Part shown: positions 2,697 to 54,613 of the stretch, piece after piece
Numbering within the stretch: position 1 is the first letter of the stretch
Layout of the letters: every line of letters begins with the position of its first letter
Assembly: GCA_963662285.2 (NCBI GenBank)
Contig: CAXXMV010000008.1
Coordinates: forward strand, 96,001 to 160,000
Length of the DNA: 64,000 bases
DNA from: a bacterium
GTDB taxonomy: Bacteria > Hinthialibacterota > Hinthialibacteria > Hinthialibacterales > Hinthialibacteraceae
Direction of reading: 5' to 3'
The notes under the pieces: model-generated
Seen by the model: only the letters and a program-made list of their open reading frames with translations
The model's database searches: none
Told to the model about the DNA's origin: nothing
Made by a program: the position numbers and the translations under genes

Positions 2697-2729
2697 GGGT
2701 GCCAAGGGCAGTGTCCTTTCTGCCCTTGA
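2697..2729 (+). repeat. REP palindrome family 1, type A; left member of an inverted doublet
   Basis: GGGTGC-CAAGGGCAG-TGTCCTTT-CTGCCCTTG-A, 9 bp stem. Confidence 0.9.
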
Positions 2730-2856
2730 CTGACAACCTCTGAAAAAAATTAACTTTAATTCTTGATAATCCATTTACAGGCGCAATATATTAGATTTGA
2801 TTCTGCTTTCATAGTGGATTTTTGATAAACCATGTAAACAAATGAAGTGAATTCAA

Positions 2857-2889
2857 TCAAGGGCAGAAAATACACTGCCCTTGCCACCC
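2857..2889 (-). repeat. REP palindrome family 1, type A; right member of an inverted doublet
   Basis: Minus strand reads GGGTGG-CAAGGGCAG-TGTATTTT-CTGCCCTTG-A. Confidence 0.9.
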
Positions 2890-4437: not shown

Positions 4438-6162
4438 ATGAATAACACACTGATTTCAACTATATTCAACAACCTACCCAGATTATTCAATAATCCAGTA
4501 ATTCTGCGCGAGATTATTGACCGCTTAAGAAAAAAGAGTTCTTTTATTTATCTCTCTATTTTTCTTGGCATCATAACCATATTGTTCTTCTGCCTACTCC
4601 CTTCATTAAAAGCAAACTATTACAGAAGCGGCAGTTCGCGTGAATTATTCATGATTTTCAATTGCATCCAGGGAATTATCATTCTGGTGCTGGTTCCACT
4701 TATCAGCGCAACTTGCATAAACATAGAACGTGAACGCTGCTCATGGGACCTTCTAATCACCACGCCGATCAGCATCCCCAGCATCCTTCTGGCCAAATTT
4801 CTTTCTCCCATTGTTTTAACTATCATAATGGCCAGTTCCCTGATTCCCATTTATGGACTCATCATCACCCTGGGCGGGGTCTCTCCGGGAGAAATAATTT
4901 TCACCTTCGCTATTTTTCTGGAATTGTCCATAACAGCGGCCTTGATCGGTCTCTATTGTTCGGTCAAATGGAAAAGCACAATTATCTCTATTTATTTCAC
5001 CTATCTCTTCCTGGTAATTTTGTATGTAATCCCGCCAATACTCATAATGGCAAATTTTAATCCATCCAACCAACCACTTGGATTATTAATTTTCTTTTCC
5101 CCCCTGATGATCGCCTTTCAGCTGGCTGGCGAGAGATTAGCATTATGTTCCAACTCAATAGCCATATTGATTCATGGATTCATAGTTTTAGTGATCGGTT
5201 TGATCATCGCCTACTTTTGCGTTAAGGCTTTAATGATCCAAACCATATATGGAAAATACACCAGCCGCAAACACCGGAAACACCCTCGCCGCATACCAGC
5301 ATTCATTAAACTAACAATATATTGGTTCAACCGCATTTTTCTATCATCTAGAAACCTGCTTGTAAAAAAGGAAATTATCGCGCATAACGGCGTATCCGGT
5401 TCGCGGGTAGCAATATCTCTATTGATATTACTGGGCATCAACATCAGCATCTTGTTACTGTTAATCATGTCAGGTGAAAGAAAACCGATAGATACCTATA
5501 TTGCCATCAGCATCCTGGTCGGTCTATTTCTGGTTCCATTTCTGATCATTCCCGGCGGAGTGAGTTGTTTCCGATCAGAATTCGACAAAGACTCCTGGAA
5601 CCTTCTCGCCACAACAAAACTTACGCCTCTTCAAATACTAAACGGGAAATACATAGCTGCTATTAATGTCTTCGTATATCAGGCAATCGCTTATTTTACG
5701 CTGCCTTTACTATTTTCATTTCTACATACTACAACAATGAATCGCCCCTTTGATTTCAACATAATAGAATTCTTAGTTCTCATGATCTGTCTATTCGTAG
5801 CCGCCAATTTTTATTTGATAATCAGCATTCTCATCTCGCTTAACGTCCGCGAAACGCTCACCGCTTATGGCATCAGTTTTTTCACTGTCTTTGCAACATT
5901 ATTGATACCAGTGGCCAGTTTAATAGTTCTTGGTGAAATGCATATTATTTCAGACCGTATTACCGAAAATAATTTGGCGATTTTATTATCAGCAATCTTT
6001 TCACCTTTCATGAATTGGATTCTTATTAATGAAAGAAATGATAATATTAACCAATTTACGATTTTCCTACCCTTAATTATGCAGATTTGTTCCCTGTTAC
6101 TCCTGACCTTCATCCTCAAAGTTTTCGCAATCAACCGCCTGAAAAAAATCATGAATCTTTGA
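4438..6162 (+). CDS. ABC-2-type transporter permease with two fused permease repeats
   Basis: Many TM segments; repeated motif ERERCSWDLLITTP / EFDKDSWNLLATTK, each followed by IL..K. Confidence 0.75.
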   Translation: MNNTLISTIFNNLPRLFNNPVILREIIDRLRKKSSFIYLSIFLGIITILFFCLLPSLKANYYRSGSSRELFMIFNCIQGIIILVLVPLISATCINIERERCSWDLLITTPISIPSILLAKFLSPIVLTIIMASSLIPIYGLIITLGGVSPGEIIFTFAIFLELSITAALIGLYCSVKWKSTIISIYFTYLFLVILYVIPPILIMANFNPSNQPLGLLIFFSPLMIAFQLAGERLALCSNSIAILIHGFIVLVIGLIIAYFCVKALMIQTIYGKYTSRKHRKHPRRIPAFIKLTIYWFNRIFLSSRNLLVKKEIIAHNGVSGSRVAISLLILLGINISILLLLIMSGERKPIDTYIAISILVGLFLVPFLIIPGGVSCFRSEFDKDSWNLLATTKLTPLQILNGKYIAAINVFVYQAIAYFTLPLLFSFLHTTTMNRPFDFNIIEFLVLMICLFVAANFYLIISILISLNVRETLTAYGISFFTVFATLLIPVASLIVLGEMHIISDRITENNLAILLSAIFSPFMNWILINERNDNINQFTIFLPLIMQICSLLLLTFILKVFAINRLKKIMNL

Positions 6163-6246
6163 TATTAAACGCTACTCTTCAGGTGAGTTTTGCTTTTGGA
6201 TTTGCTATAGTAACTATAAATCTATCTTTATAAAAAGGTACAAACC

Positions 6247-8544
6247 ATGCGTATTCATCTACTCTTAATCATATTACTAAGTTGTTCATCAGTCTTTGCT
6301 GATCTCCCGGAAAGACGCCATAACCTTGAATTCAATCAACTTGCGCAGCGCTGGGATGAAGCCGTCCCCCTGGGCAATGGAATGCTCGGTTCCCTGGTAT
6401 GGGAAGAAGGCGCCACCCTGCGCTTCTCGCTGGATCGCGCCGACCTGTGGGATAGCAGACCTGTGCCTAATTTCCAAAAAGATAATTTTAATTTTGATTG
6501 GATATACCAAAACATCCTTGCTGGGAAGATTGAGCCGGTTCGTGAACTATGCGATAAGCCCTACGACTCTGATCCAGCGCCGACCAAGATTCCAGCTGGC
6601 CGCCTGGAATTCGACCAGTCAACTTTCGGAACAGTCCAGGGCGTCCGGCTTGATATCAGCCAGGCGCAATGCAACGTAATATGGAGCGAAGGCGTCCACC
6701 TCAAAACTTTCATTCACGCCACTCAACCAATCGGATGGTTCCATATCCGCAATGTCACATCGTCTCTTCGCCCGACTATCATTCCTCCACCATTCGGCGG
6801 CAGCGACGCGCAACGCACCAATGGCGCCGACTCTCTCAGCGGCCACGCCCTTAACACTCTGGGATATCCGGAACCAGAGATAGAAAACGGTGAGAACTAT
6901 ATCTCTTACATCCAAAAAGGCTGGGGAGATTTCGAATTCGCCATCTATTGCGCGTGGACATATCAAAATGAGAGTGATCTAATCGGCGCGTGGTCGATCC
7001 ACTCAAGTGAGACATCCAAAAATCCCCTTATCGACGCACGCGAATCCGTCGTCCGCGCCTTAAAGCGAACTTATAATGATGATTTCAAAACCCACGCCGC
7101 CTGGTGGAATGAATACTGGGATCAATCAGCGGTAAATTTACCCGATCAAACTCTCGAAGGTCAATGGTATCACGAACAGTATAAATTCGGCTCAGCCTCA
7201 CGCCGCGGCGCTCCCCCCATAACCTTGCAAGCGGTATGGACTGCCGACGAACGCCGCGTACCTCCCTGGAAAGGCGACTATCATAACGACCTAAACACCC
7301 AATTAAGTTACTGGCCCTGCTACAGCGGAAACCATCTTGAAGAAGGTCTCTCTTTCATTGAATGGCTATGGAAGATCAGACCTTACGTCAAAGATTGGAC
7401 CAAACGGTTCTATAAAATTGATGGCTTAAACGTCCCTGGAGTAACCGCCATTGACGGCGCCCCTATGGGAGGCTGGAACCAATACTCACTCTCGCCAACC
7501 ACATCCGCCTGGTTGTCGCACCATTTCTACCTGCACTGGCGCTACAGCATGGATCGAATATTCCTGCGCCGTTACGCCTACCCCTGGATAAGCGAAACAG
7601 CCCATTTTCTGCTTAAACACTCCATCCGTAGAGCAGACGGTAAACGAAAATTGCCGCTAAGTTCATCACCGGAGATCAACGACAATCGCTTAGAAGCATG
7701 GTTTAAAGAAACAACCAACTATGATCTTTCACTGATTCGCTGGACATTCCAAACCGCCGCTGAACTGGCTACCGAACTGCGCAATAAATCTGAAGCGAAT
7801 TTCTGGATCAAAATACTCAACGAATGGCCTGAATTGGCGCTCGCTAAAGATGATGGACGGCTGCTGGTGGCGCCCGATTATCCATTAGAAGCGTCCCACC
7901 GCCATTTCTCGCACCTCATGGCCATTCATCCGCTTGGTCTGGTCGATTTATCAAACGGAAAGAAAGACCAGCAGACCATCGAAGCTTCGCTAGCCGAATT
8001 AGAACGCCTCGGACCAGACTATTGGTGTGGATATTCGTATTCATGGCTGGCCAGTTTCTACGCCCGCGCCAACAATGGAGACAAAGCAGCCCAGGCGCTG
8101 CGCACCTTCGCTGAATGCTTCTGCTCCATCAACACCTTTCACCTTAACGGAGATCAGACCAAAAGCGGTAAATCAAAATTTCAATACCGGCCATTCACCT
8201 TGGAAGGCAATTTCGCTTTCGCCGCAGGTTTGCAGGAAATGCTCCTTCAAAGCCATAGTGGATTAATCCGCGTCTTCCCCGCTGTACCCGGATCATGGGA
8301 CGCAGCATCATTCAAAACATTACGAACCGAAGGCGCCTTCCTGGTCTCGGCTATGATGAAAAACAAAAAAGTGGACGCTATTGAAATAGAGTCTCTAAAC
8401 GGTGGAACCGCACGACTCGAAAATCCATTCGGTTCACGCAAATATAATTATTCTGGAGTAAGGAAATCTAATATCAAAGAAAACGGGAAAGTACTGGAGA
8501 TTAAGACGCATTCAGGGCAGAAAATTCTGTTGAAAAGACAATAA
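6247..8544 (+). CDS. GH95-family glycoside hydrolase (alpha-1,2-fucosidase-like)
   Basis: WDEAVPLGNG, WKGDYHNDLN, SSSPE, HRHFSHL, EGNF and EMLLQS motifs; signal peptide. Confidence 0.88.
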   Translation: MRIHLLLIILLSCSSVFADLPERRHNLEFNQLAQRWDEAVPLGNGMLGSLVWEEGATLRFSLDRADLWDSRPVPNFQKDNFNFDWIYQNILAGKIEPVRELCDKPYDSDPAPTKIPAGRLEFDQSTFGTVQGVRLDISQAQCNVIWSEGVHLKTFIHATQPIGWFHIRNVTSSLRPTIIPPPFGGSDAQRTNGADSLSGHALNTLGYPEPEIENGENYISYIQKGWGDFEFAIYCAWTYQNESDLIGAWSIHSSETSKNPLIDARESVVRALKRTYNDDFKTHAAWWNEYWDQSAVNLPDQTLEGQWYHEQYKFGSASRRGAPPITLQAVWTADERRVPPWKGDYHNDLNTQLSYWPCYSGNHLEEGLSFIEWLWKIRPYVKDWTKRFYKIDGLNVPGVTAIDGAPMGGWNQYSLSPTTSAWLSHHFYLHWRYSMDRIFLRRYAYPWISETAHFLLKHSIRRADGKRKLPLSSSPEINDNRLEAWFKETTNYDLSLIRWTFQTAAELATELRNKSEANFWIKILNEWPELALAKDDGRLLVAPDYPLEASHRHFSHLMAIHPLGLVDLSNGKKDQQTIEASLAELERLGPDYWCGYSYSWLASFYARANNGDKAAQALRTFAECFCSINTFHLNGDQTKSGKSKFQYRPFTLEGNFAFAAGLQEMLLQSHSGLIRVFPAVPGSWDAASFKTLRTEGAFLVSAMMKNKKVDAIEIESLNGGTARLENPFGSRKYNYSGVRKSNIKENGKVLEIKTHSGQKILLKRQ

Positions 8545-13076: not shown

Positions 13077-13115
13077 GGGCGCCAAGGGCAAGACCGCAAT
13101 GCGGTCAGCCCTTGA
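13077..13115 (+). repeat. REP palindrome family 1, type B
   Basis: GGGCGC-CAAGGGC-AA-GACCGC-AAT-GCGGTC-A-GCCCTTG-A. Confidence 0.9.
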
Positions 13116-15904: not shown

Positions 15905-15994
15905 ATTCTCCCCCCAAGTTTGGGGAGAGTTAGAGGGGGGTTGCCTTTCGACTAATCAACCCCCTCCTAACCTCCCCCAGGCTTGGGGGAGGAA
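15905..15994. repeat. ~90 bp G/C-run double-hairpin element, copy 2 (family 2)
   Basis: CTCCCCCCAAGTTTGGGGAGAGTTAGAGGGGGG...CCCCTCCTAACCTCCCCCAGGCTTGGGGGAGG. Confidence 0.85.
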
Positions 15995-17504: not shown

Positions 17505-17543
17505 GGGTGGCAAGGGCAAGACCGCAATGCGGTCAGCCCTTGA
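17505..17543 (+). repeat. REP palindrome family 1, type B
   Basis: GGGTGG-CAAGGGC-AA-GACCGC-AAT-GCGGTC-A-GCCCTTG-A. Confidence 0.9.
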
Positions 17544-30345: not shown

Positions 30346-33300
30346 GTGCAAAACAGCCGTTGGCGTAGTTTACGTTGGATACATCGTCTCTATAGAAAAC
30401 ATATTATCCGGCGATTTATTGGTTTCATCAGCCTGGGCGCCGCTTTAGGCGTTCTGGCATTTCAATTATTGCTGCTCGCCGCAAGCATGTTTAATTTAAA
30501 GCATGGCGGCGTAAATGTTTTATTTACAACTATTTGCGTGGTTATGTTATGGTTTATCATCCAGTATCTGCGTGGATGGGGATCAGAAGGTTTCCTGATA
30601 AAGACATTTTTCAAGAACCTTGAGAAAGAAAATTCCGACATAGCCAACCGGGCGTCGCTGCTGGTTTATACAGAAACGCAACCTGAAGAGATTGAACGTC
30701 TGGGCTACTCAAAAGAATTGATAGATCAAGATGATAAATGGCTCGATCAGTATATTTCATCCAGCATCAAGCATAGCGCCAGCGCCATTCCGATTGCCAG
30801 CCTGATTGTACTTGGTTTAGTATTACTACCATCAATTGCTTTATGGCGTATTAATCCTGGATTGGTCCAAGGGCAATTATCAACAATTTCTGATGAACTA
30901 TGGATCAGTAACACGCCGCAATTAACTGCATCTATATCAACAGCTAACCATGTCTCAGCCGCACGGGGCGCTGCCACGGCGCTTAGAGCGGACTGGATCA
31001 ATCCTGATTTATCATTGGATGCATCGATCCATTTCCGCACCCGCAACACCTGGAACAAACAACCAGTTCACTTTGAAGGAAACCAACTGGTATTCCGCAT
31101 TCCCTCAGTGAACCGCGCAATGGAGTACTACTTCTCAGCGGGAAACATTCTTTCAAATAAAGGCATCCTGACTCCTATCGATCCACCGGCCATTGCCAGC
31201 GGTGAAATAATCATTACGCCTCCTGTATATACCGGCTTGAAAGTAGAGACTTTAGATAGATTAAGGCCGGCATCATTTCCGGAAGGAAGCAAACTGACAA
31301 TTACCGCTGAAGCCACTACCAAACTTGCTTCAGCCACGGTTTTTTACAACGATAAGCCTTATAAAACGTTATTTGACCAATACGCAGTCTTTTCATCCCT
31401 GATTATTGAGGAATCAGGAGACTTGTATTTTCTGTTGGAAGATGAAAATGGTTTGAAGAATAAAAGCCCCAAATATAGAATGACGGCTATTGAGGATGCG
31501 ACGCCTACCCTGGATGTATCCAGTCCAAAAACCATCTCAATTATGCCCAACAATTTTCAGTTAACAGTAAAACTGCACGCTCAAGATGATTATATTCTGC
31601 AACTACTACATAAACACATCAAAATCAATGGAGAAAAAACAGAAAATTCTTCGTATCTGGTGTGGGAGAATAAAGCGATAAAATCAGCCGCCGGAGTAGT
31701 CTATGAAGTTACCTCCGATCTATTTGTGACTTATGATTGGAGTCTGCTGGATTACAAACTCTTCCCCGGGGATGAGATAAGTTTCTCCCTGGAAGTATGG
31801 GATAACGATGTCATACATGGCCCCAAATCCGCCCGTTCGCAAACCTTTACCGTCAAATATCCTACCCTGGTTGACCTGTTATCCCAATTGGATCAACAGG
31901 AAGAATCTCAGATCACTGATTTAAGCGAACTGGTTGAAGAGCAGACTAAGATTACTGAGGAAGCGCGCAAGACGCTCGAGAAAATTGCTGAAAAAATGGA
32001 ACAGCGCGATATGGAACCGGGCGATGAAGATCAATCTACCTGGATGGAAGAAAAAGAACTTGAATCAATTAAAGATAAACAACAGGAATTGATCGATAAA
32101 GCCAGTAAGATCGAAAAAGAGCTGGAAGAATACCGCGAACAAGCCGAAAAAGCGCTCGAAGAACAACCCGAAAACCAACAGGGCTTTTCGCCTGAAACGC
32201 TTGAAAAAATTGAGAAGATTCAACAGTTAATGAGTCAACTGCTGGATGAAAACAGCCGCAACTTGATGGAAAAAATCGACCAGACCGTCGAGCAGTTATC
32301 CCAGCAGATCACCGATGAACAACTTCAGGAATTAAACTTTTCCTTTGAGGATTTCGAACAACAACTGGAGAGGACGCTATCCACCCTGGAGGATGCTTTT
32401 GAAACGCGCAAACTGGAAGGTCTTCAGCAAATGAGCCAGGAACTGGCGGAGCGTCAGGAAAAACTCCAGAGCGAAACAGAACAATTAGCCCAAGATATGG
32501 AGCAACTGGAGAAGGATAAGCAATCAGCCAATGGCGAAGACATGGCAGCCAGGGAACAGGCGTTGGAATCGCAAAAGAAACTACTTGAACAACGGCAAAA
32601 CCAAATTGAGGAAGATGTGAAAAGTCTGCTCAACTCTATGAAAGAGCGCGAGAAAGCACTGGAAGAATCTCATCCTGAAATAGCCCAAAAAATGGATTCC
32701 ATGCAACAGGAGATGCAGGAACAGGGATTGCAAAGCGAACTGTCTAAAGCATCACAAAAAATGCAATCCAGTGAAATGCAACAGGCGCAGCAGCATCAAA
32801 AAAACGCCAAAAAGCAGTTGCAATCACTCGCTCAGCAATTCGAGGAAGAAATGTTCAATATGGGCGGCATGAATATGCAAGCCGATACCCAGGCGCTGTC
32901 GCGTTTAGTATTTCAAGGTCTTTTTCTATCCGAACAGATGGAGTCGCTCACTGAATCTTCACTGGGACGCAGTGAAGCATTGGGCGCCCTGCGACGCGCT
33001 CAAGTTTTCAACCGGGAATTGGCCCGAATTGATGATTCATGGCGGGAAATCGCCAAAACCAATCCCTTCATGAACCGGGAAGCTGAAGTTTCTTTAGGTA
33101 ATAGCGCAGAACGCTTGAACCATGCCATAGCCGCCGGACAAGGCGAGAAGTGGATCGGACTGCATGAGACGCGCAGCGCCATGAATGCGCTCAATCAAGC
33201 CATTTATCAGATGATGCAGGATATGCAGAACATGCAGCAGCAGATGGATCAGTCTCAGTCGCAAGGGCTTCAACAACAGATGCAGCAGATGATTTCCCAG

Positions 33301-33798
33301 CAGCAGAGTCTGCAGCAAATGCTAAAGCAGATGCAGCAGATGGGCGAGAATGGTCAACAGATGATGGAGAAGTTGCAGCAAATGGCCAAGGAGCAGGCCC
33401 GCATCCGTAAGGAAATCGAAAAGATGATGCAGCGCAATCGTCACGCCAAACAACTTAAAAACCAACTGGACGGCATCTATCAGGAGATGAAAGAGGTAGA
33501 AAAACTGCTCGAAGAAGGCCTTAACAATGAACAGGTCGAAGAGAAGCAAAAGAAGATCATGACCCGCATGCTGGAAGCCGGGACCATGCAGGAAGAAGAT
33601 GATTACGGCGAAGAACGTGAAGAGGAAGTCGCCGAAACCGGACTGGACGCCAAGTCTCCTGAATTAACCGAACCGGTATCACTGCCTGATAAGATTGACC
33701 GTTATATCGAACGGCCTCCGATTGAGTCAATTCCGTTTCCATACCGTGAAGCTTTGAAGAAATATTACATCCGCTTATCGGAGAAGTTGATTCCATAG
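30346..33798 (+). CDS. DUF4175-like membrane-anchored coiled-coil protein
   Basis: N-terminal TMs, PPVYTG, DDY and PGD...WDND..GP motifs; long Q/E-rich coiled coils; C-terminal P.YR...K.YY. Confidence 0.8.
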   Translation: MQNSRWRSLRWIHRLYRKHIIRRFIGFISLGAALGVLAFQLLLLAASMFNLKHGGVNVLFTTICVVMLWFIIQYLRGWGSEGFLIKTFFKNLEKENSDIANRASLLVYTETQPEEIERLGYSKELIDQDDKWLDQYISSSIKHSASAIPIASLIVLGLVLLPSIALWRINPGLVQGQLSTISDELWISNTPQLTASISTANHVSAARGAATALRADWINPDLSLDASIHFRTRNTWNKQPVHFEGNQLVFRIPSVNRAMEYYFSAGNILSNKGILTPIDPPAIASGEIIITPPVYTGLKVETLDRLRPASFPEGSKLTITAEATTKLASATVFYNDKPYKTLFDQYAVFSSLIIEESGDLYFLLEDENGLKNKSPKYRMTAIEDATPTLDVSSPKTISIMPNNFQLTVKLHAQDDYILQLLHKHIKINGEKTENSSYLVWENKAIKSAAGVVYEVTSDLFVTYDWSLLDYKLFPGDEISFSLEVWDNDVIHGPKSARSQTFTVKYPTLVDLLSQLDQQEESQITDLSELVEEQTKITEEARKTLEKIAEKMEQRDMEPGDEDQSTWMEEKELESIKDKQQELIDKASKIEKELEEYREQAEKALEEQPENQQGFSPETLEKIEKIQQLMSQLLDENSRNLMEKIDQTVEQLSQQITDEQLQELNFSFEDFEQQLERTLSTLEDAFETRKLEGLQQMSQELAERQEKLQSETEQLAQDMEQLEKDKQSANGEDMAAREQALESQKKLLEQRQNQIEEDVKSLLNSMKEREKALEESHPEIAQKMDSMQQEMQEQGLQSELSKASQKMQSSEMQQAQQHQKNAKKQLQSLAQQFEEEMFNMGGMNMQADTQALSRLVFQGLFLSEQMESLTESSLGRSEALGALRRAQVFNRELARIDDSWREIAKTNPFMNREAEVSLGNSAERLNHAIAAGQGEKWIGLHETRSAMNALNQAIYQMMQDMQNMQQQMDQSQSQGLQQQMQQMISQQQSLQQMLKQMQQMGENGQQMMEKLQQMAKEQARIRKEIEKMMQRNRHAKQLKNQLDGIYQEMKEVEKLLEEGLNNEQVEEKQKKIMTRMLEAGTMQEEDDYGEEREEEVAETGLDAKSPELTEPVSLPDKIDRYIERPPIESIPFPYREALKKYYIRLSEKLIP

Positions 33799-33909
33799 GG
33801 GATTCATTGGTCATACGATGGGACACGCCGAAAAGGTGATTTTGAGGATGTAGTCTCTTTTGCTTTGTCCAACTTTTTATCTACATGTTTGTTTAATCGT
33901 AAGTGGCTT

Positions 33910-33942
33910 TCAAGGGTAGAAAGTACACTACCCTTGCCACCC
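33910..33942 (-). repeat. REP family 1, type A, downstream of RAYT
   Basis: Minus strand GGGTGG-CAAGGGTAG-TGTACTTT-CTACCCTTG-A; a truncated inverted end GGGTGCCA lies at 33951-33958. Confidence 0.92.
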
Positions 33943-33975
33943 GACCTGCTGGGTGCCATTGATTGAATCCCCTAT

Positions 33976-34536
33976 TCATTTCCAAAATTCCCACCAACGA
34001 TCCACTCTAAAAACAGAATCGTCATTAAATTCATAGTTCCGGTAACTGGAGAATATCCAATCTTCAGGGGAAGAAACAAGATTCCTTCTAACTGGATTCA
34101 TATGACAATAATTTAGTTTATCATGGAGTTTTTCAATAGAGAAAACATTGAAATCATAAAACCTGGGCAACCATAATTTGTGAATGTTCATTCCTTTATT
34201 GCGTAATATTTTTAACAATCGTTTTGAACTATGTAACTTTAACGCATGCATAACTGAAGAAATCCCAATGTTCTTTTGAGGCGCAATCAGAAAATGCGCA
34301 TGTTCTGGCATTAAAACATATCCCAAAACTAGAAATTCTTTTTGCATTCTCGCTTTGTTAATAGCTTCTACTACAATTTCACATGACCATTGTTTCGAAA
34401 AAAACGGTTTTTTATTATGGCATGATGTTGTAATAAAGTGGATATTACCAGGTTCATCAATCCTGATGGGGTGAATGATTGAGCGAAATTTATTATCTGT
34501 CTTTGAAGAATCATAGGTTTGATTACGTTTCTCCAT
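33976..34536 (-). CDS. REP-associated tyrosine transposase (RAYT/TnpA-REP, HUH Y1 family)
   Basis: HFITT, MPEHAH (HUH), W..RFYD and NY.H.NPV..LV..PEDW.FSS motifs; REP hairpins on both sides. Confidence 0.92.
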   Translation of the reverse strand: MEKRNQTYDSSKTDNKFRSIIHPIRIDEPGNIHFITTSCHNKKPFFSKQWSCEIVVEAINKARMQKEFLVLGYVLMPEHAHFLIAPQKNIGISSVMHALKLHSSKRLLKILRNKGMNIHKLWLPRFYDFNVFSIEKLHDKLNYCHMNPVRRNLVSSPEDWIFSSYRNYEFNDDSVFRVDRWWEFWK

Positions 34537-34545
34537 AGTTTTCAG

Positions 34546-34578
34546 TCAAGGGTAGAAAGGACACTACCCTTGGCACCC
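34546..34578 (-). repeat. REP family 1, type A, upstream of RAYT
   Basis: Minus strand GGGTGC-CAAGGGTAG-TGTCCTTT-CTACCCTTG-A, ending 9 nt before the RAYT ATG. Confidence 0.92.
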
Positions 34579-34686
34579 CTTTCTTTTTCACATTGTTATA
34601 ATAAATTTCAAACTATCATAACAGGTCATTCGGGGATAATATTTAATCACTCTGTCCATAAACTAGGCGCCCGTTTATCTATTAGA

Positions 34687-37359
34687 TTATAATTCCCCGC
34701 AATCACCAACTTCGGCGTCTTTGAGAAATACAATCTTATACCATAAAACCTTTGGATCATTCATAAGATTGATCACTAGATCGCCGTTTTGGGTATGAAC
34801 TACGTTGTCAAGTTCTTTTTCAGGTTCAGCAACATTATTCAGGGCGAATATTCTGGCGCCGGTATTGGTGTAGAATGGATTACCGGATGCAGCAATTGTA
34901 AGACGCAGCGGGATCGGTTCAACTAAAGGCGGTCCTTCTCCCCAATTGTTTCCAACTGAAGTTTTCTCTTCATCTTTCCAGATCATGCCTTGATTTTCAT
35001 GATATCCTGTAGCGGCCAGAAGCCAGACATAACCTTCATCTCTCTCTTCAATATAAGTCAGAAGAACATTAGCCCAGTTCTGTATAGTTTCTCCAACTTC
35101 AAGTTGCATTCCATGACCAAGATCAAAGGGTGAGTCCTTTACGAATCCCGTGATTCCTTTGGTCTTTGCAGCGCGGTAAAGTACATGAGAATTTGATTCG
35201 GAATCTTGATTCCATAGCAATTCCCCAGTATCAGAGGCCATATTACGCCGTGTGGTTTGATAATCAGGATTACTTGTTTCCTGCGGCGCATCGCTGATGC
35301 GAAGGGCTGTTTTGTGTTGATAAGAGGCCGCCGCATCAATCCCCATATCCATCATAGGACGAAAACCCAAATTACCGTTATTGTTAAACAGCTGGTCGTT
35401 ATATTGGCTCTTGGATATAGTGGCGGTTACGGTTTCTCGCCCAGCTGCGATATCACCACGCACGAACATGTTAAAGGCGGCGGGCATAGCCATCATTTTG
35501 GGAGTGTGACCATATATATCAAAAAAATTATTGATGGATTTTCTCTCATAGTCATTGCCATGACTGTATGAATATAAGAAGATGCCATCCCAATCCTGAA
35601 AGGCGGCGTAAGCGGCCAACAGGGGAATTGCTTCCGAAGAATAGGTCATAGGCGCCGGGTGATTGTATTCAGTGCATGTGTAGGGCTGTCCCGCGACGCG
35701 CGACATCATCAAACGCTCAAGGGTATTGTTTTCCGCACTGACCATTGAAACGTTGTTGACATACCAATCTATGGAATCCCAGGATTTATTGGGAAAACGG
35801 GGATGCTGCCAGTAGCCGTGAATATCGATAAAATCGTTTTCCAATTGCGATGCAACAGAACCGAAATTCAACTGAGTACCAGCGATCATCGATTTCAGTT
35901 TAAGATCATTTTTTAGATACTGATTCATATCACGGTAATATTCAGATTCACGCTGCACCAGGAAATCAATCCAGTCTCGTTTCTTGGCAATAGAGTTTTC
36001 CCCGAAAGATTTCCTGGATACCCATGCAATGTTTTTTGACTGAATATCCTGACCTTGCGGTAGTCCATCAGGACTGCTGGAGATCATACTTAGATCAGAT
36101 ACCCATAAAGTCCCTAATTTGTTGCCTAAGCCGCTTATACTCAACCGGGCGTTACTATCATCCTGCGACGGCGTAAATGCAAACTCATAGGTCTTCCATT
36201 GATCGGTAATTTCTACAGTTGCAGTGGAATCAAGGTTTTCCCAGGGATCATGGTTCATTTTTATTCCAACGCTGACGGTTCTCGCTGGTTCAGCCCGCAG
36301 ACGCATGGATACTTTATAGAATCCGCCATTTTGCAATGCCAGATTCTGATAATACATTTGTACATGCCAACTCTCCCGCCCTACTGCGGTGACATCCACT
36401 CTAATAGCATCCTGCCCCTCTGGACCTTCAGGAACAATCTTCCAGGTTCCCTTGCCTTGCTCTATCTGTTGAAATGTCCAGCCGTTAAGGCTGCGGGATA
36501 ATAATTCCTGACCGCCGCCCGGATTATCCGGCGCCCAGGCCTGGCGTAAACTTTCAGTGTCTTGGTATTTAGTCTTGAGATAATCATTCCAGTCATTTTG
36601 CAGCGGCTCAATATACTTGCCGGGCATTTTATCCAGATCAGAATTACTCCAGGCCCGTACCAATCCACTTTCGTTATTGATTTCAACTATAGCAACCGCT
36701 GGTTCGTCGACGTATTTATTTCCCGTGTATGGATTTAGGTGCGTCAGCAGGTCTCTGGCGTAATTCTTCTGTAATTCAATCATACGGGGGAAATAATGAT
36801 CGGGGCCTTTATCATAAGTAGGCAGTTTATCAACATCAGTAAAACCGTCTCCCTCAACCACTTCACGGCCAATTTTTAAGTTGATGTCGGCGTAGATGCC
36901 ATATTTCTTGAGCATATAAATAAAATAATCCATGCGGTCAAGGTTATCTGGATCGAGAGTTTGTTTATCCGGCGCGCCAGATTTCCAGATGCCCCGTGGA
37001 GCGCGGGATGTATCGGTATGATGGAAGCGGACGCAGTTGATGCCGTATTTAGCCATGCGTCCCGCCACGTATTCGGCCTGTTTGTGAGTGGGATAATTGC
37101 CGGAAAACGACGTGTTTACCCCTAAAAGACGAAGCCTTTTCCCTGCTCCATCGAAAAAATGTCCATCCAAAATATGCATAAAACCATCTTTGCCGGCGGG
37201 GATATCTCTGCCGTCCAAGTTCAATATACCGGGATCAGCAGTATTATTATCATTCCAGGGAAGAGAAAAAGGTATTAATTCTTTTGAGAAAACAGCATTA
37301 ATACCAATAAATAAAATAGTTATAATGTAAAACACTGTGTATTTTTTATAGAAAAACAT
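34687..37359 (-). CDS. Clan GH-A (GH5-like) glycoside hydrolase with inserted CBM4/9-like module
   Basis: GINCVRFHH, EINNE (acid/base), DIHGYWQHP and TEYN (nucleophile); internal W..Q....L..G..Y galactose-binding-like domain. Confidence 0.8.
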   Translation of the reverse strand: MFFYKKYTVFYIITILFIGINAVFSKELIPFSLPWNDNNTADPGILNLDGRDIPAGKDGFMHILDGHFFDGAGKRLRLLGVNTSFSGNYPTHKQAEYVAGRMAKYGINCVRFHHTDTSRAPRGIWKSGAPDKQTLDPDNLDRMDYFIYMLKKYGIYADINLKIGREVVEGDGFTDVDKLPTYDKGPDHYFPRMIELQKNYARDLLTHLNPYTGNKYVDEPAVAIVEINNESGLVRAWSNSDLDKMPGKYIEPLQNDWNDYLKTKYQDTESLRQAWAPDNPGGGQELLSRSLNGWTFQQIEQGKGTWKIVPEGPEGQDAIRVDVTAVGRESWHVQMYYQNLALQNGGFYKVSMRLRAEPARTVSVGIKMNHDPWENLDSTATVEITDQWKTYEFAFTPSQDDSNARLSISGLGNKLGTLWVSDLSMISSSPDGLPQGQDIQSKNIAWVSRKSFGENSIAKKRDWIDFLVQRESEYYRDMNQYLKNDLKLKSMIAGTQLNFGSVASQLENDFIDIHGYWQHPRFPNKSWDSIDWYVNNVSMVSAENNTLERLMMSRVAGQPYTCTEYNHPAPMTYSSEAIPLLAAYAAFQDWDGIFLYSYSHGNDYERKSINNFFDIYGHTPKMMAMPAAFNMFVRGDIAAGRETVTATISKSQYNDQLFNNNGNLGFRPMMDMGIDAAASYQHKTALRISDAPQETSNPDYQTTRRNMASDTGELLWNQDSESNSHVLYRAAKTKGITGFVKDSPFDLGHGMQLEVGETIQNWANVLLTYIEERDEGYVWLLAATGYHENQGMIWKDEEKTSVGNNWGEGPPLVEPIPLRLTIAASGNPFYTNTGARIFALNNVAEPEKELDNVVHTQNGDLVINLMNDPKVLWYKIVFLKDAEVGDCGEL

Positions 37360-45213: not shown

Positions 45214-45246
45214 TCAAGGGCAGAAAATACACTGCCCTTGGCACCC
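45214..45246 (-). repeat. REP family 1, type A
   Basis: Minus strand GGGTGC-CAAGGGCAG-TGTATTTT-CTGCCCTTG-A. Confidence 0.9.
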
Positions 45247-50853: not shown

Positions 50854-50892
50854 TCAAGGGCTGACCGCGTTGCGGTCTTGCTTTTGGCCCCC
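50854..50892 (-). repeat. REP family 1, type B, degenerate
   Basis: Minus strand GGGGGC-CAAAAGC-AA-GACCGC-AAC-GCGGTC-A-GCCCTTG-A. Confidence 0.8.
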
Positions 50893-54574: not shown

Positions 54575-54613
54575 AGGCGCCAAGGGCAAGACCGCAAAGC
54601 GGTCAGCCCTTGT
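54575..54613 (+). repeat. REP family 1, type B; left member of a mixed doublet
   Basis: AGGCGC-CAAGGGC-AA-GACCGC-AAA-GCGGTC-A-GCCCTTG. Confidence 0.88.

Follow-up and report, generated by a model that had tools for sequence, protein, structure and literature searches.

Judged by their sequences, the REP doublets scattered through the bacterial genome studied here likely arose by internal deletion from a RAYT element that was formerly mobile, and it is these proliferating gene-derived doublets that are new, whereas the type of RAYT and the foot of its hairpins are already known. In the analysed window, a stretch of 64,000 nucleotides to which all coordinates without a contig name refer, the element is represented by a RAYT gene whose right hairpin has been truncated.

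The RAYT gene and the layout of its unit

The RAYT (TnpA-REP) gene occupies 33976..34536 on the minus strand and encodes 186 amino acids. The intact HUH/Y1 protein of the original prediction was found as such: the reading frame is present, with the HUH histidines in H79-A-H81 and the Y-x-x-x-N-P motif in Y143-C-H-M-N-P, and both motifs are invariant or near-invariant across 14 homologues. Alanine at the u position is absent from the residues listed for it in the accessible text of Quentin 2018 (PMC6006769). The protein scores 110.6 bits with the NCBIfam model REP_Tyr_transpos (NF047646; cut-off 80) and 24 bits with the IS200 model, below the cut-off of 55. Its best PDB match, by sequence as well as by predicted fold, is the E. 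coli TnpA-REP 4ER8; the predicted fold has a pLDDT of 88 and gave 4ER8 as top match (E 1e-10, TM 0.67-0.74), and in an alignment with 22% identity H79, H81 and Y143 fall on H59, H61 and Y115. HUH and Y-x-x-x-N-P motifs, profile, fold and dispersed extragenic flanking repeats place the protein among the RAYTs (TnpA-Y1 class 2). It does not belong with IS200/IS605: Y-x-x-x-Q is missing, the IS200 profile stays under its cut-off, and one nucleotide-level copy plus an 81% paralogue were found. Nor do its guide-contact residues fit the canonical GTAG group. In the pairwise alignment W94, Q95, E100, H101 and R104 of the E. coli enzyme, named as guide contacts in PMC6006769, correspond to W122, L123, D128, F129 and F132, so that Q95, H101 and R104 are replaced by L, F and F. 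One contig joint, present in a single run and with 27 letters on its shorter side, omits 270 nt of the gene and may derive from a paralogue.

The genome has three RAYT paralogues (100, 81 and 59% identity). Paralogue 2 is flanked by a pair of inverted type A hairpins whose feet face outward, and paralogue 3 by type B doublets. Next to the window gene, as predicted, two 33-nt hairpins with 9-bp stems and 8-nt loops lie on the minus strand, and a truncated inverted end is present at 33951. The left-end hairpin, a type A REP with the foot GGGTGC (34546..34578), stands 9 nt ahead of the start codon, a position that it also has in paralogue 2 and relatives. The right end is an inverted REP on the plus strand (33951..33975) that keeps the foot GGGTGCCA and the linker and lacks 21 nt of hairpin; it is predicted to fold no longer (z-score 0.29), and its counterpart in paralogue 2 is intact. 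In run X1, probably from the same sample, a contig that was assembled separately spans 33400-34312 with zero differing letters and lends no support to an assembly slip at the truncated end.

The second full hairpin, a type A REP at 33910..33942, lies 8 nt outside the right end and is followed by an AARCCAC linker common to 26 type A copies. This copy and the left-end hairpin have the same orientation and had been taken to bracket the gene, but the inverted layout in paralogue 2 and relatives rules them out as the ends of one unit. In paralogue 2, as in the homologues of genomes G002, G003 (broken frame), G011 and G016, a tails-out pair of hairpins hugs the ORF. Because paralogue 2 and homologues show this pair close to the ORF, the comparison indicates that the native unit is REP-tnpA-inverted REP, with 33951 as its real right end and the copy at 33910 as a separate singlet. 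GGGTGS foot, long hairpin and inversion on both sides correspond to the layout of REPtrons and TIRtrons, the right hairpin of this copy being deleted. The right hairpin is damaged in all three paralogues (deleted, foot mutated, half truncated). At the G001 homologue the upstream side ends at a contig edge and three copies follow on the downstream side, one of them direct and two inverted. The expectation that the hairpins are cognate to this clade of RAYTs held in four other genomes, whose close homologues share the foot, the CMAGGG stem base and the tails-out pairs. Outside the left REP, a further 50 nt (34579..34628, minus strand) are still homologous to paralogue 2 and possibly contain a promoter; a promoter/terminator scan remained at chance level, and a consensus scan gave no site in this segment.

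The REP family and its gene-derived doublets

At six or fewer mismatches the genome holds 489 REP copies, 234 of type A and 255 of type B. The exact pattern matched 400 times and the reversed pattern not once, which argues against a chance repeat, and 347 of 497 scan matches agree with the consensus exactly. Ten of the 489 copies lie inside long ORFs, which cover 83% of the genome. The foot of the 347 exact copies reads GTGG in 82 cases and GTGC or GCGC in 264. Dispersed copies within the window comprise type B REPs at 13077..13115 (+), 17505..17543 (+), 50854..50892 (-, three mismatches) and 54575..54613 (+, two mismatches) and a type A REP at 45214..45246 (-).

A T-A pair in the stem of the two copies at the gene had been described as a compensatory change restricted to them. 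The covariation is real, but the restriction holds only inside the window, where two of the five type A copies have T-A: genome-wide T-A occurs in 51 of the 234 type A copies (C-G in 174), so the pair is ruled out as the mark of a master copy. Many T-A copies fall in two of four head-to-tail arrays of type A repeats, those on contigs C1 and C8 (G000:C1:13072-15726, C6:1228327-1229600, C8:889331-890100 and C2:1601500-1602430, with periods of about 133, 85, 89 and 143 nt, respectively). The GGGYGS repeats occur in mosaics with several other hairpin families (CCCCTCACCC...GGGAGAGGG, CCCCCAAGTTGGGGG, GTAGGGGCG..., GTAGGGTGGG...), at 2608-2686 and 15911-15989 of the window and at many REP flanks genome-wide.

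Tails-out pairs less than 700 nt long number 55 in the genome. Among the 48 of type A one is paralogue 2, and the other 47 were scored against the gene ends, a match being counted when it exceeded all 100 base shuffles, which keep base composition only. By this measure the 5' end was matched by 38 doublets, the 3' end by 45, both by 37 and at least one end by 46; mid-gene control segments scored lower than the ends, though close for a few right ends. In an end-anchored alignment all 48 doublets below 300 nt (46 type A, two mixed) scored more than 15 above the shuffles. They typically keep about 35-45 nt of the 5' side of the gene and 50-95 nt of the 3' side. The gene in the window had been proposed as the master locus of the system, which the comparison does not support: its best-scoring share of these 48 doublets is 27, with 21 going to paralogue 2, there are three paralogues, and type B flanks paralogue 3.

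In the shortest doublet family the two ends are joined at a 7-nt microhomology, ATGATTC, which is present near both ends of the gene. These doublets read as in-frame start-end fusions, MDKRNQSYD/TVFSVDC-stop-WEFLK-stop and KRNQSYD/SVYRVDR-stop-WKFWK-stop, with the joint at the slash. Another copy retains the internal IRINES, and the longer families show several other deletion joints. When the 46 type A spacers are clustered at 70% identity, they fall into families of 17, 14, 6 and 2 along with 7 singletons, on several contigs. The doublets are polar, with the right loop TGTATTTT in 43 of 48 and the left loop YGTYCTTT likewise in 43 of 48. Across the RAYT family the C-terminal motif is conserved as protein sequence, so the direction is from gene to repeat. 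With both parent ends kept, the coding part deleted and many dispersed copies, the doublets have the make-up of MITEs.

One type A doublet lies in the window at 2697..2889 (+). It has a 127-nt spacer and is a deletion derivative of the element, with a 3' relic above all 100 shuffles and a 5' relic that alone is not significant (6 of 100). The doublet upstream of paralogue 3 repeats the last codons and the linker of that paralogue. Type B copies are mostly singlets; of four tails-out type B pairs, which were scored against paralogues 1 and 2 only, one matched the ends of these genes. Among 18 hand-picked regions of relatives, relics came from G003 (two doublets), G014 (three deletion derivatives) and G016 (one doublet), whereas one G003 doublet and both G001 doublet loci had no relic. 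Target duplications of 2-5 nt occurred in the 48 doublets at chance level only. HUH chemistry is not expected to duplicate the target site. Many doublets have 50-80 nt of outer flank in common, so what moves often extends beyond the doublet itself.

Two outer flanks of 55-80 nt, both beginning GCTGATCTTTACCC, stand on the foot side and occur at 28 REP flanks genome-wide. In G014 (contig C89, about 4900-6400) two near-identical deletion derivatives, L029 and L134, keep the 3' quarter of the gene and bracket about 900 nt; small ORFs between them, some toxin-antitoxin- or DUF-like by eye, are possible cargo between mini elements.

Paralogues and the host site

Against paralogue 2 the RAYT gene has a dN/dS of 0.093 and a dS of 1.03, values which indicate that it is under purifying selection and that the split between paralogues 1 and 2 is old. 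Their homology is confined to 33954-34628. Neither near-identical full-length RAYT copies nor 95%-identical gene copies were found in the genome and, given this and the dS, any move of the gene must be old. A distant fourth RAYT (G000:C1:404934-405353) is flanked by a different inverted repeat, GGGGAGCATCGGCTTCTAGCCGGTG, which is likewise dispersed in the genome. An ordinary IS200-type TnpA with Y-x-x-x-Q at G000:C1:1031050-1031409 (L001) served as outgroup in the tree described below.

The element lies between a host gene of 1150 amino acids with a weak DUF4175 match below cut-off (30346..33798, plus strand) and one of 890 amino acids with a CBM_4_9 domain (34687..37359, minus strand). Both host genes were found in 19 of 19 relatives, and in none of these 19, which belong to other genera and in which some loci end at a contig edge, does a RAYT or a strict REP adjoin the upstream host gene. 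Only 6 nt and no RAYT separate the two genes in G004, which constitutes an empty site. Eight RAYT loci have no neighbouring genes in common. The features of a domesticated RAYT are found here in part: near-identical duplicates are lacking and selection is purifying, but the extragenic position is not the same across relatives. For the doublets, no empty sites were seen in the relatives compared, all of other genera. G005 (L180) and G017 (L181) carry a gene for a membrane protein of 515-517 amino acids, glycosyltransferase-like by eye, at the place of the RAYT. At 269-410 of L156 (G011:C43), near the orthologue of the 890-aa gene, four motif matches form an array with a 47-nt period.

Homologues and variation of the foot

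The strict REP pattern is present in 10 of 19 genomes of the same family and in none of 41 other genomes searched. The foot varies within the host family: in G011, where the repeat has a CMAGGG stem, it is GGGTAG or GGGTAC in most of 100 copies listed among 178, and in the 98 repeats of G013 it is mostly GGGTGG. These variants suggest that the GGGTGC foot grades into the canonical GTAG or GT[AG]G foot. G013 (98% complete) yielded no RAYT of the window gene's clade in a profile search despite its 98 repeats; these may be an orphan population, or the RAYT gene is unassembled.

In metagenomes 586 matches to the RAYT were obtained and the best 80 analysed. Among these best 80 loci GGGYGSC points outward on both sides in 57 and on at least one side in 72, against 5 and 23 for the opposite-orientation control. 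The nearest outside relatives obtained (33-42% identity; L117, L098, L052 and L116) have hairpins almost identical to rows of Table S1 in PMC6006769. A quick tree of 106 proteins, with no bootstrap and an unsure root, unites the eight family members (support 96) and separates them from the RayT of E. coli and from five loci with GTAG flanks (support 99). This tree omits L016, all loci whose frame is broken or short, and ACO33629.1, ADV81227.1, ABF42478.1, ADG66729.1 and ADY58460.1. Counts of tree labels were not used because the lenient foot classifier behind them is noisy (15/80 in the control against 57/80). Plasmids gave seven records at 22-28% identity, none in the clade of the window RAYT, and scanning named genomes with the single protein yielded one true relative and one 29-residue match. 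A profile search over cluster representatives returned 38724 matches at E 0.001; among ten proteins looked up by name, there are one Planctomycetes and one Brocadiales name.

Discussion

The hairpin foot had been thought to define a new GGGYG tail class. However, GGGTGC is already given for ACO33629.1 and ADV81227.1 in Table S1 of Quentin 2018 (PMC6006769), where other members of subclass 2.2 are entered with GGTG, GGTGC, GTGC or GGTGG, and these feet rule out a new tail class. Misplaced members of subclass 2.2 are described there as enriched in GTGG. Di Nocera 2013 (PMC3733652) gives the name TIRtron to RAYT genes that lie between long inverted repeats with partial self-complementarity and reports a sharply defined Acidobacteria group, and feet of the GGGTGC and GGTGG kinds are known from Acidobacteria and Planctomycete RAYTs (PMC6006769 Table S1; PMC3733652). 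A term search of the same Table S1 did not return the stem base CAAGGG. The suggestion of a poorly characterised class fared better insofar as a literature search found no biochemical study of the group, although its tail is catalogued. By these comparisons the window RAYT and its foot probably represent a fresh member of a catalogued group.

How such a unit could move can be modelled after the E. coli and Marinomonas enzymes (PMC3479197, PMC8266576). The protein would bind the folded single-stranded hairpin together with its 5' foot, base pairing with the foot would pick a dinucleotide cut site, and Y143 would form a 5'-phosphotyrosine, with strand transfer then moving the unit without target duplication. 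The whole REP-tnpA-inverted REP element would have been moved now and then, and internal deletions would have produced non-coding doublets that the enzyme spread in trans and that multiplied before they decayed to singlets and arrays. Damage to the right hairpin, present in each of the three surviving genes, has likely fixed them in place. The guide may be read in more than one register, because the last base of the foot varies between C and G and, in some relatives, pairs into the stem. A pyrimidine precedes the foot in 88% of 360 unique flanks and may be the cut site or part of the motif. No cut-site signal emerged from the genome: truncated hairpins abut a foot in 15 cases at offset 0 compared with 21-36 cases at offsets 1-6, without a peak, and in 321 and 47 pairwise breakpoints no enrichment of CA, CC, GC or CT was found.

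Overall, we consider it quite probable that the whole unit moved occasionally, that deletion doublets spread in trans and decayed, and that the remaining genes became fixed by loss of the right hairpin. The unit layout, the doublet relics, the deletion joints, purifying selection and the differing neighbourhoods of each RAYT copy can be read directly from the DNA. Against this explanation it can be held that the relatives belong to other genera, so that host rearrangement could change the neighbours, that G013 has its 98 repeats without a RAYT of the clade, and that the doublets of G001 and one of G003 lack a relic. An unlikely alternative, in which the gene never moved as a unit, would have the enzyme or host repair cut and join within the gene's own locus once or a few times, with only the doublets spreading and with paralogues and changed neighbours arising by host duplication, rearrangement or horizontal arrival. 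The old divergence of the paralogues (dS 1.03) and the absence of 95%-identical gene copies would agree with this, as do reports of RAYTs as single-copy and immobile (PMC8266576; 10.1101/2021.07.10.451892), but the homology between paralogues ends at the limits of the element, the eight loci lack common neighbours, G004 has an empty site, and several deletion joints, some with internal codons, suggest several parent copies.

We regard as more improbable still that the full element once spread in the manner of an insertion sequence to dozens of sites, where its copies collapsed in place at microhomology to leave dead doublets that never moved. Such collapse could yield the same joint repeatedly at the 7-nt microhomology, the members of the short family are only 65-80% alike, and larger decayed pieces exist in G003, G014 and G017. 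Yet the families of 14 and 17 share a length and a spacer unlike the gene, with pairs 90-100% identical, and the hairpins are far better kept than the spacers (347/497 exact), as expected if they are still recognised. Least credible, and indeed very improbable, is a new RAYT/REP class that has one master locus here and is defined by a GGGYG guide and two direct hairpins. The separation of the clade from the E. coli GTAG group in the quick tree (96, 99) and the replacement of the E. coli guide contacts Q95, H101 and R104 by L, F and F speak for it; against it stand the catalogued foot, the three paralogues, the T-A pair in 51 copies, the inverted rather than direct ends of homologues and the GGGTAG foot in G011. 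Occasional movement of the whole unit with doublets spread in trans hence stays our preferred reading. Its bolder form, in which the REP-tnpA-inverted REP unit is itself transposable, repeatedly spawns REPIN-like doublets and becomes a fixed helper once the right hairpin is lost, so that this lineage would be the missing link from an autonomous single-strand transposon to a domesticated RAYT-REPIN system, is a tentative proposal to which we give somewhat less than an even chance.

The relics in the doublets are likely a fossil record of how families of REP repeats arise. That REPINs go back to the two ends of an autonomous element has been put forward as a proposal, and RAYTs are held to be immobile (PMC3116915, PMC3337134, 10.1101/2021.07.10.451892); PMC8266576 (2021) says that evidence for tnpA-REP mobility is lacking, and PMC5581495 and PMC3333891 describe infrequent duplication and genes that were lost precisely between BIMEs. 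A literature search, with subscription papers and ISfinder outside its scope, found no paper describing REP doublets with RAYT gene ends. Here the route to the REPIN can be read from the sequence of four genomes and at several joints, and it looks recurrent rather than unique. The locus moreover offers a defined substrate with two ends, a 90-nt mini element and the natural feet GTAG, GTAC, GTGG, GTGC and GCGC on one stem, a set that would serve to test the spread of REPs and the control of the cut site by the foot. If the full unit is transposable, the elements of G002, G011 and G016, in which both ends are intact, would still be mobile; such a RAYT would be the first to transpose its own gene and would provide a ready assay of how REPs spread.

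Among known systems, the E. coli TnpA-REP (RayT/YafM, 4ER8) with its GTAG REPs and BIMEs shares the fold, the positions of HUH and tyrosine and the hairpin with a 5' foot. It differs in that the present protein is 22% identical, belongs to a separate clade, has a GGGYGS foot and has not kept Q95, H101 and R104; the type A stem here is perfect, and the gene is hugged by one inverted pair instead of BIMEs. With IS200/IS605, their derivatives and MITEs the element has in common the HUH-Y1 chemistry, hairpin ends, lack of target duplication and internal-deletion derivatives, internal deletion being a general route to MITEs. Unlike IS200/IS605, it has Y-x-x-x-N-P in place of Y-x-x-x-Q, its ends are inverted copies of one hairpin, and near-identical gene copies and tnpB are absent. 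The Pseudomonas REPIN-RAYT system (PMC3116915, PMC3337134, 10.1101/2021.07.10.451892) resembles it in its extragenic inverted doublets with set spacer lengths, in having several RAYTs each with its own type of repeat and in purifying selection on the gene. However, the Pseudomonas doublet is symmetric with a hairpin-forming spacer, whereas the spacer here is polar and consists of the remains of the transposase gene, derived more than once. Closest are the REPtrons with GGGTGC or GGTGG feet in TnpA-Y1 subclass 2.2 (ACO33629.1, ADV81227.1, ABF42478.1, ADG66729.1 and ADY58460.1; PMC6006769) and the Acidobacteria TIRYT/TIRtron group (PMC3733652), which share the class 2 Y-x-x-x-N-P motif, the 6-nt GGGTGC foot, the long hairpin, inverted self-complementary ends and repeats that occur as singles, dimers and clusters. 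In contrast to both, the stem base reads CAAGGG...CCCTTG here and CCCCA...TGGG there, the host family is probably that of Candidatus Hinthialibacter, judging by the named match P0008, and the present family has 489 copies with doublets that keep relics of the gene, a feature unreported in the accessible text of PMC6006769 or PMC3733652.
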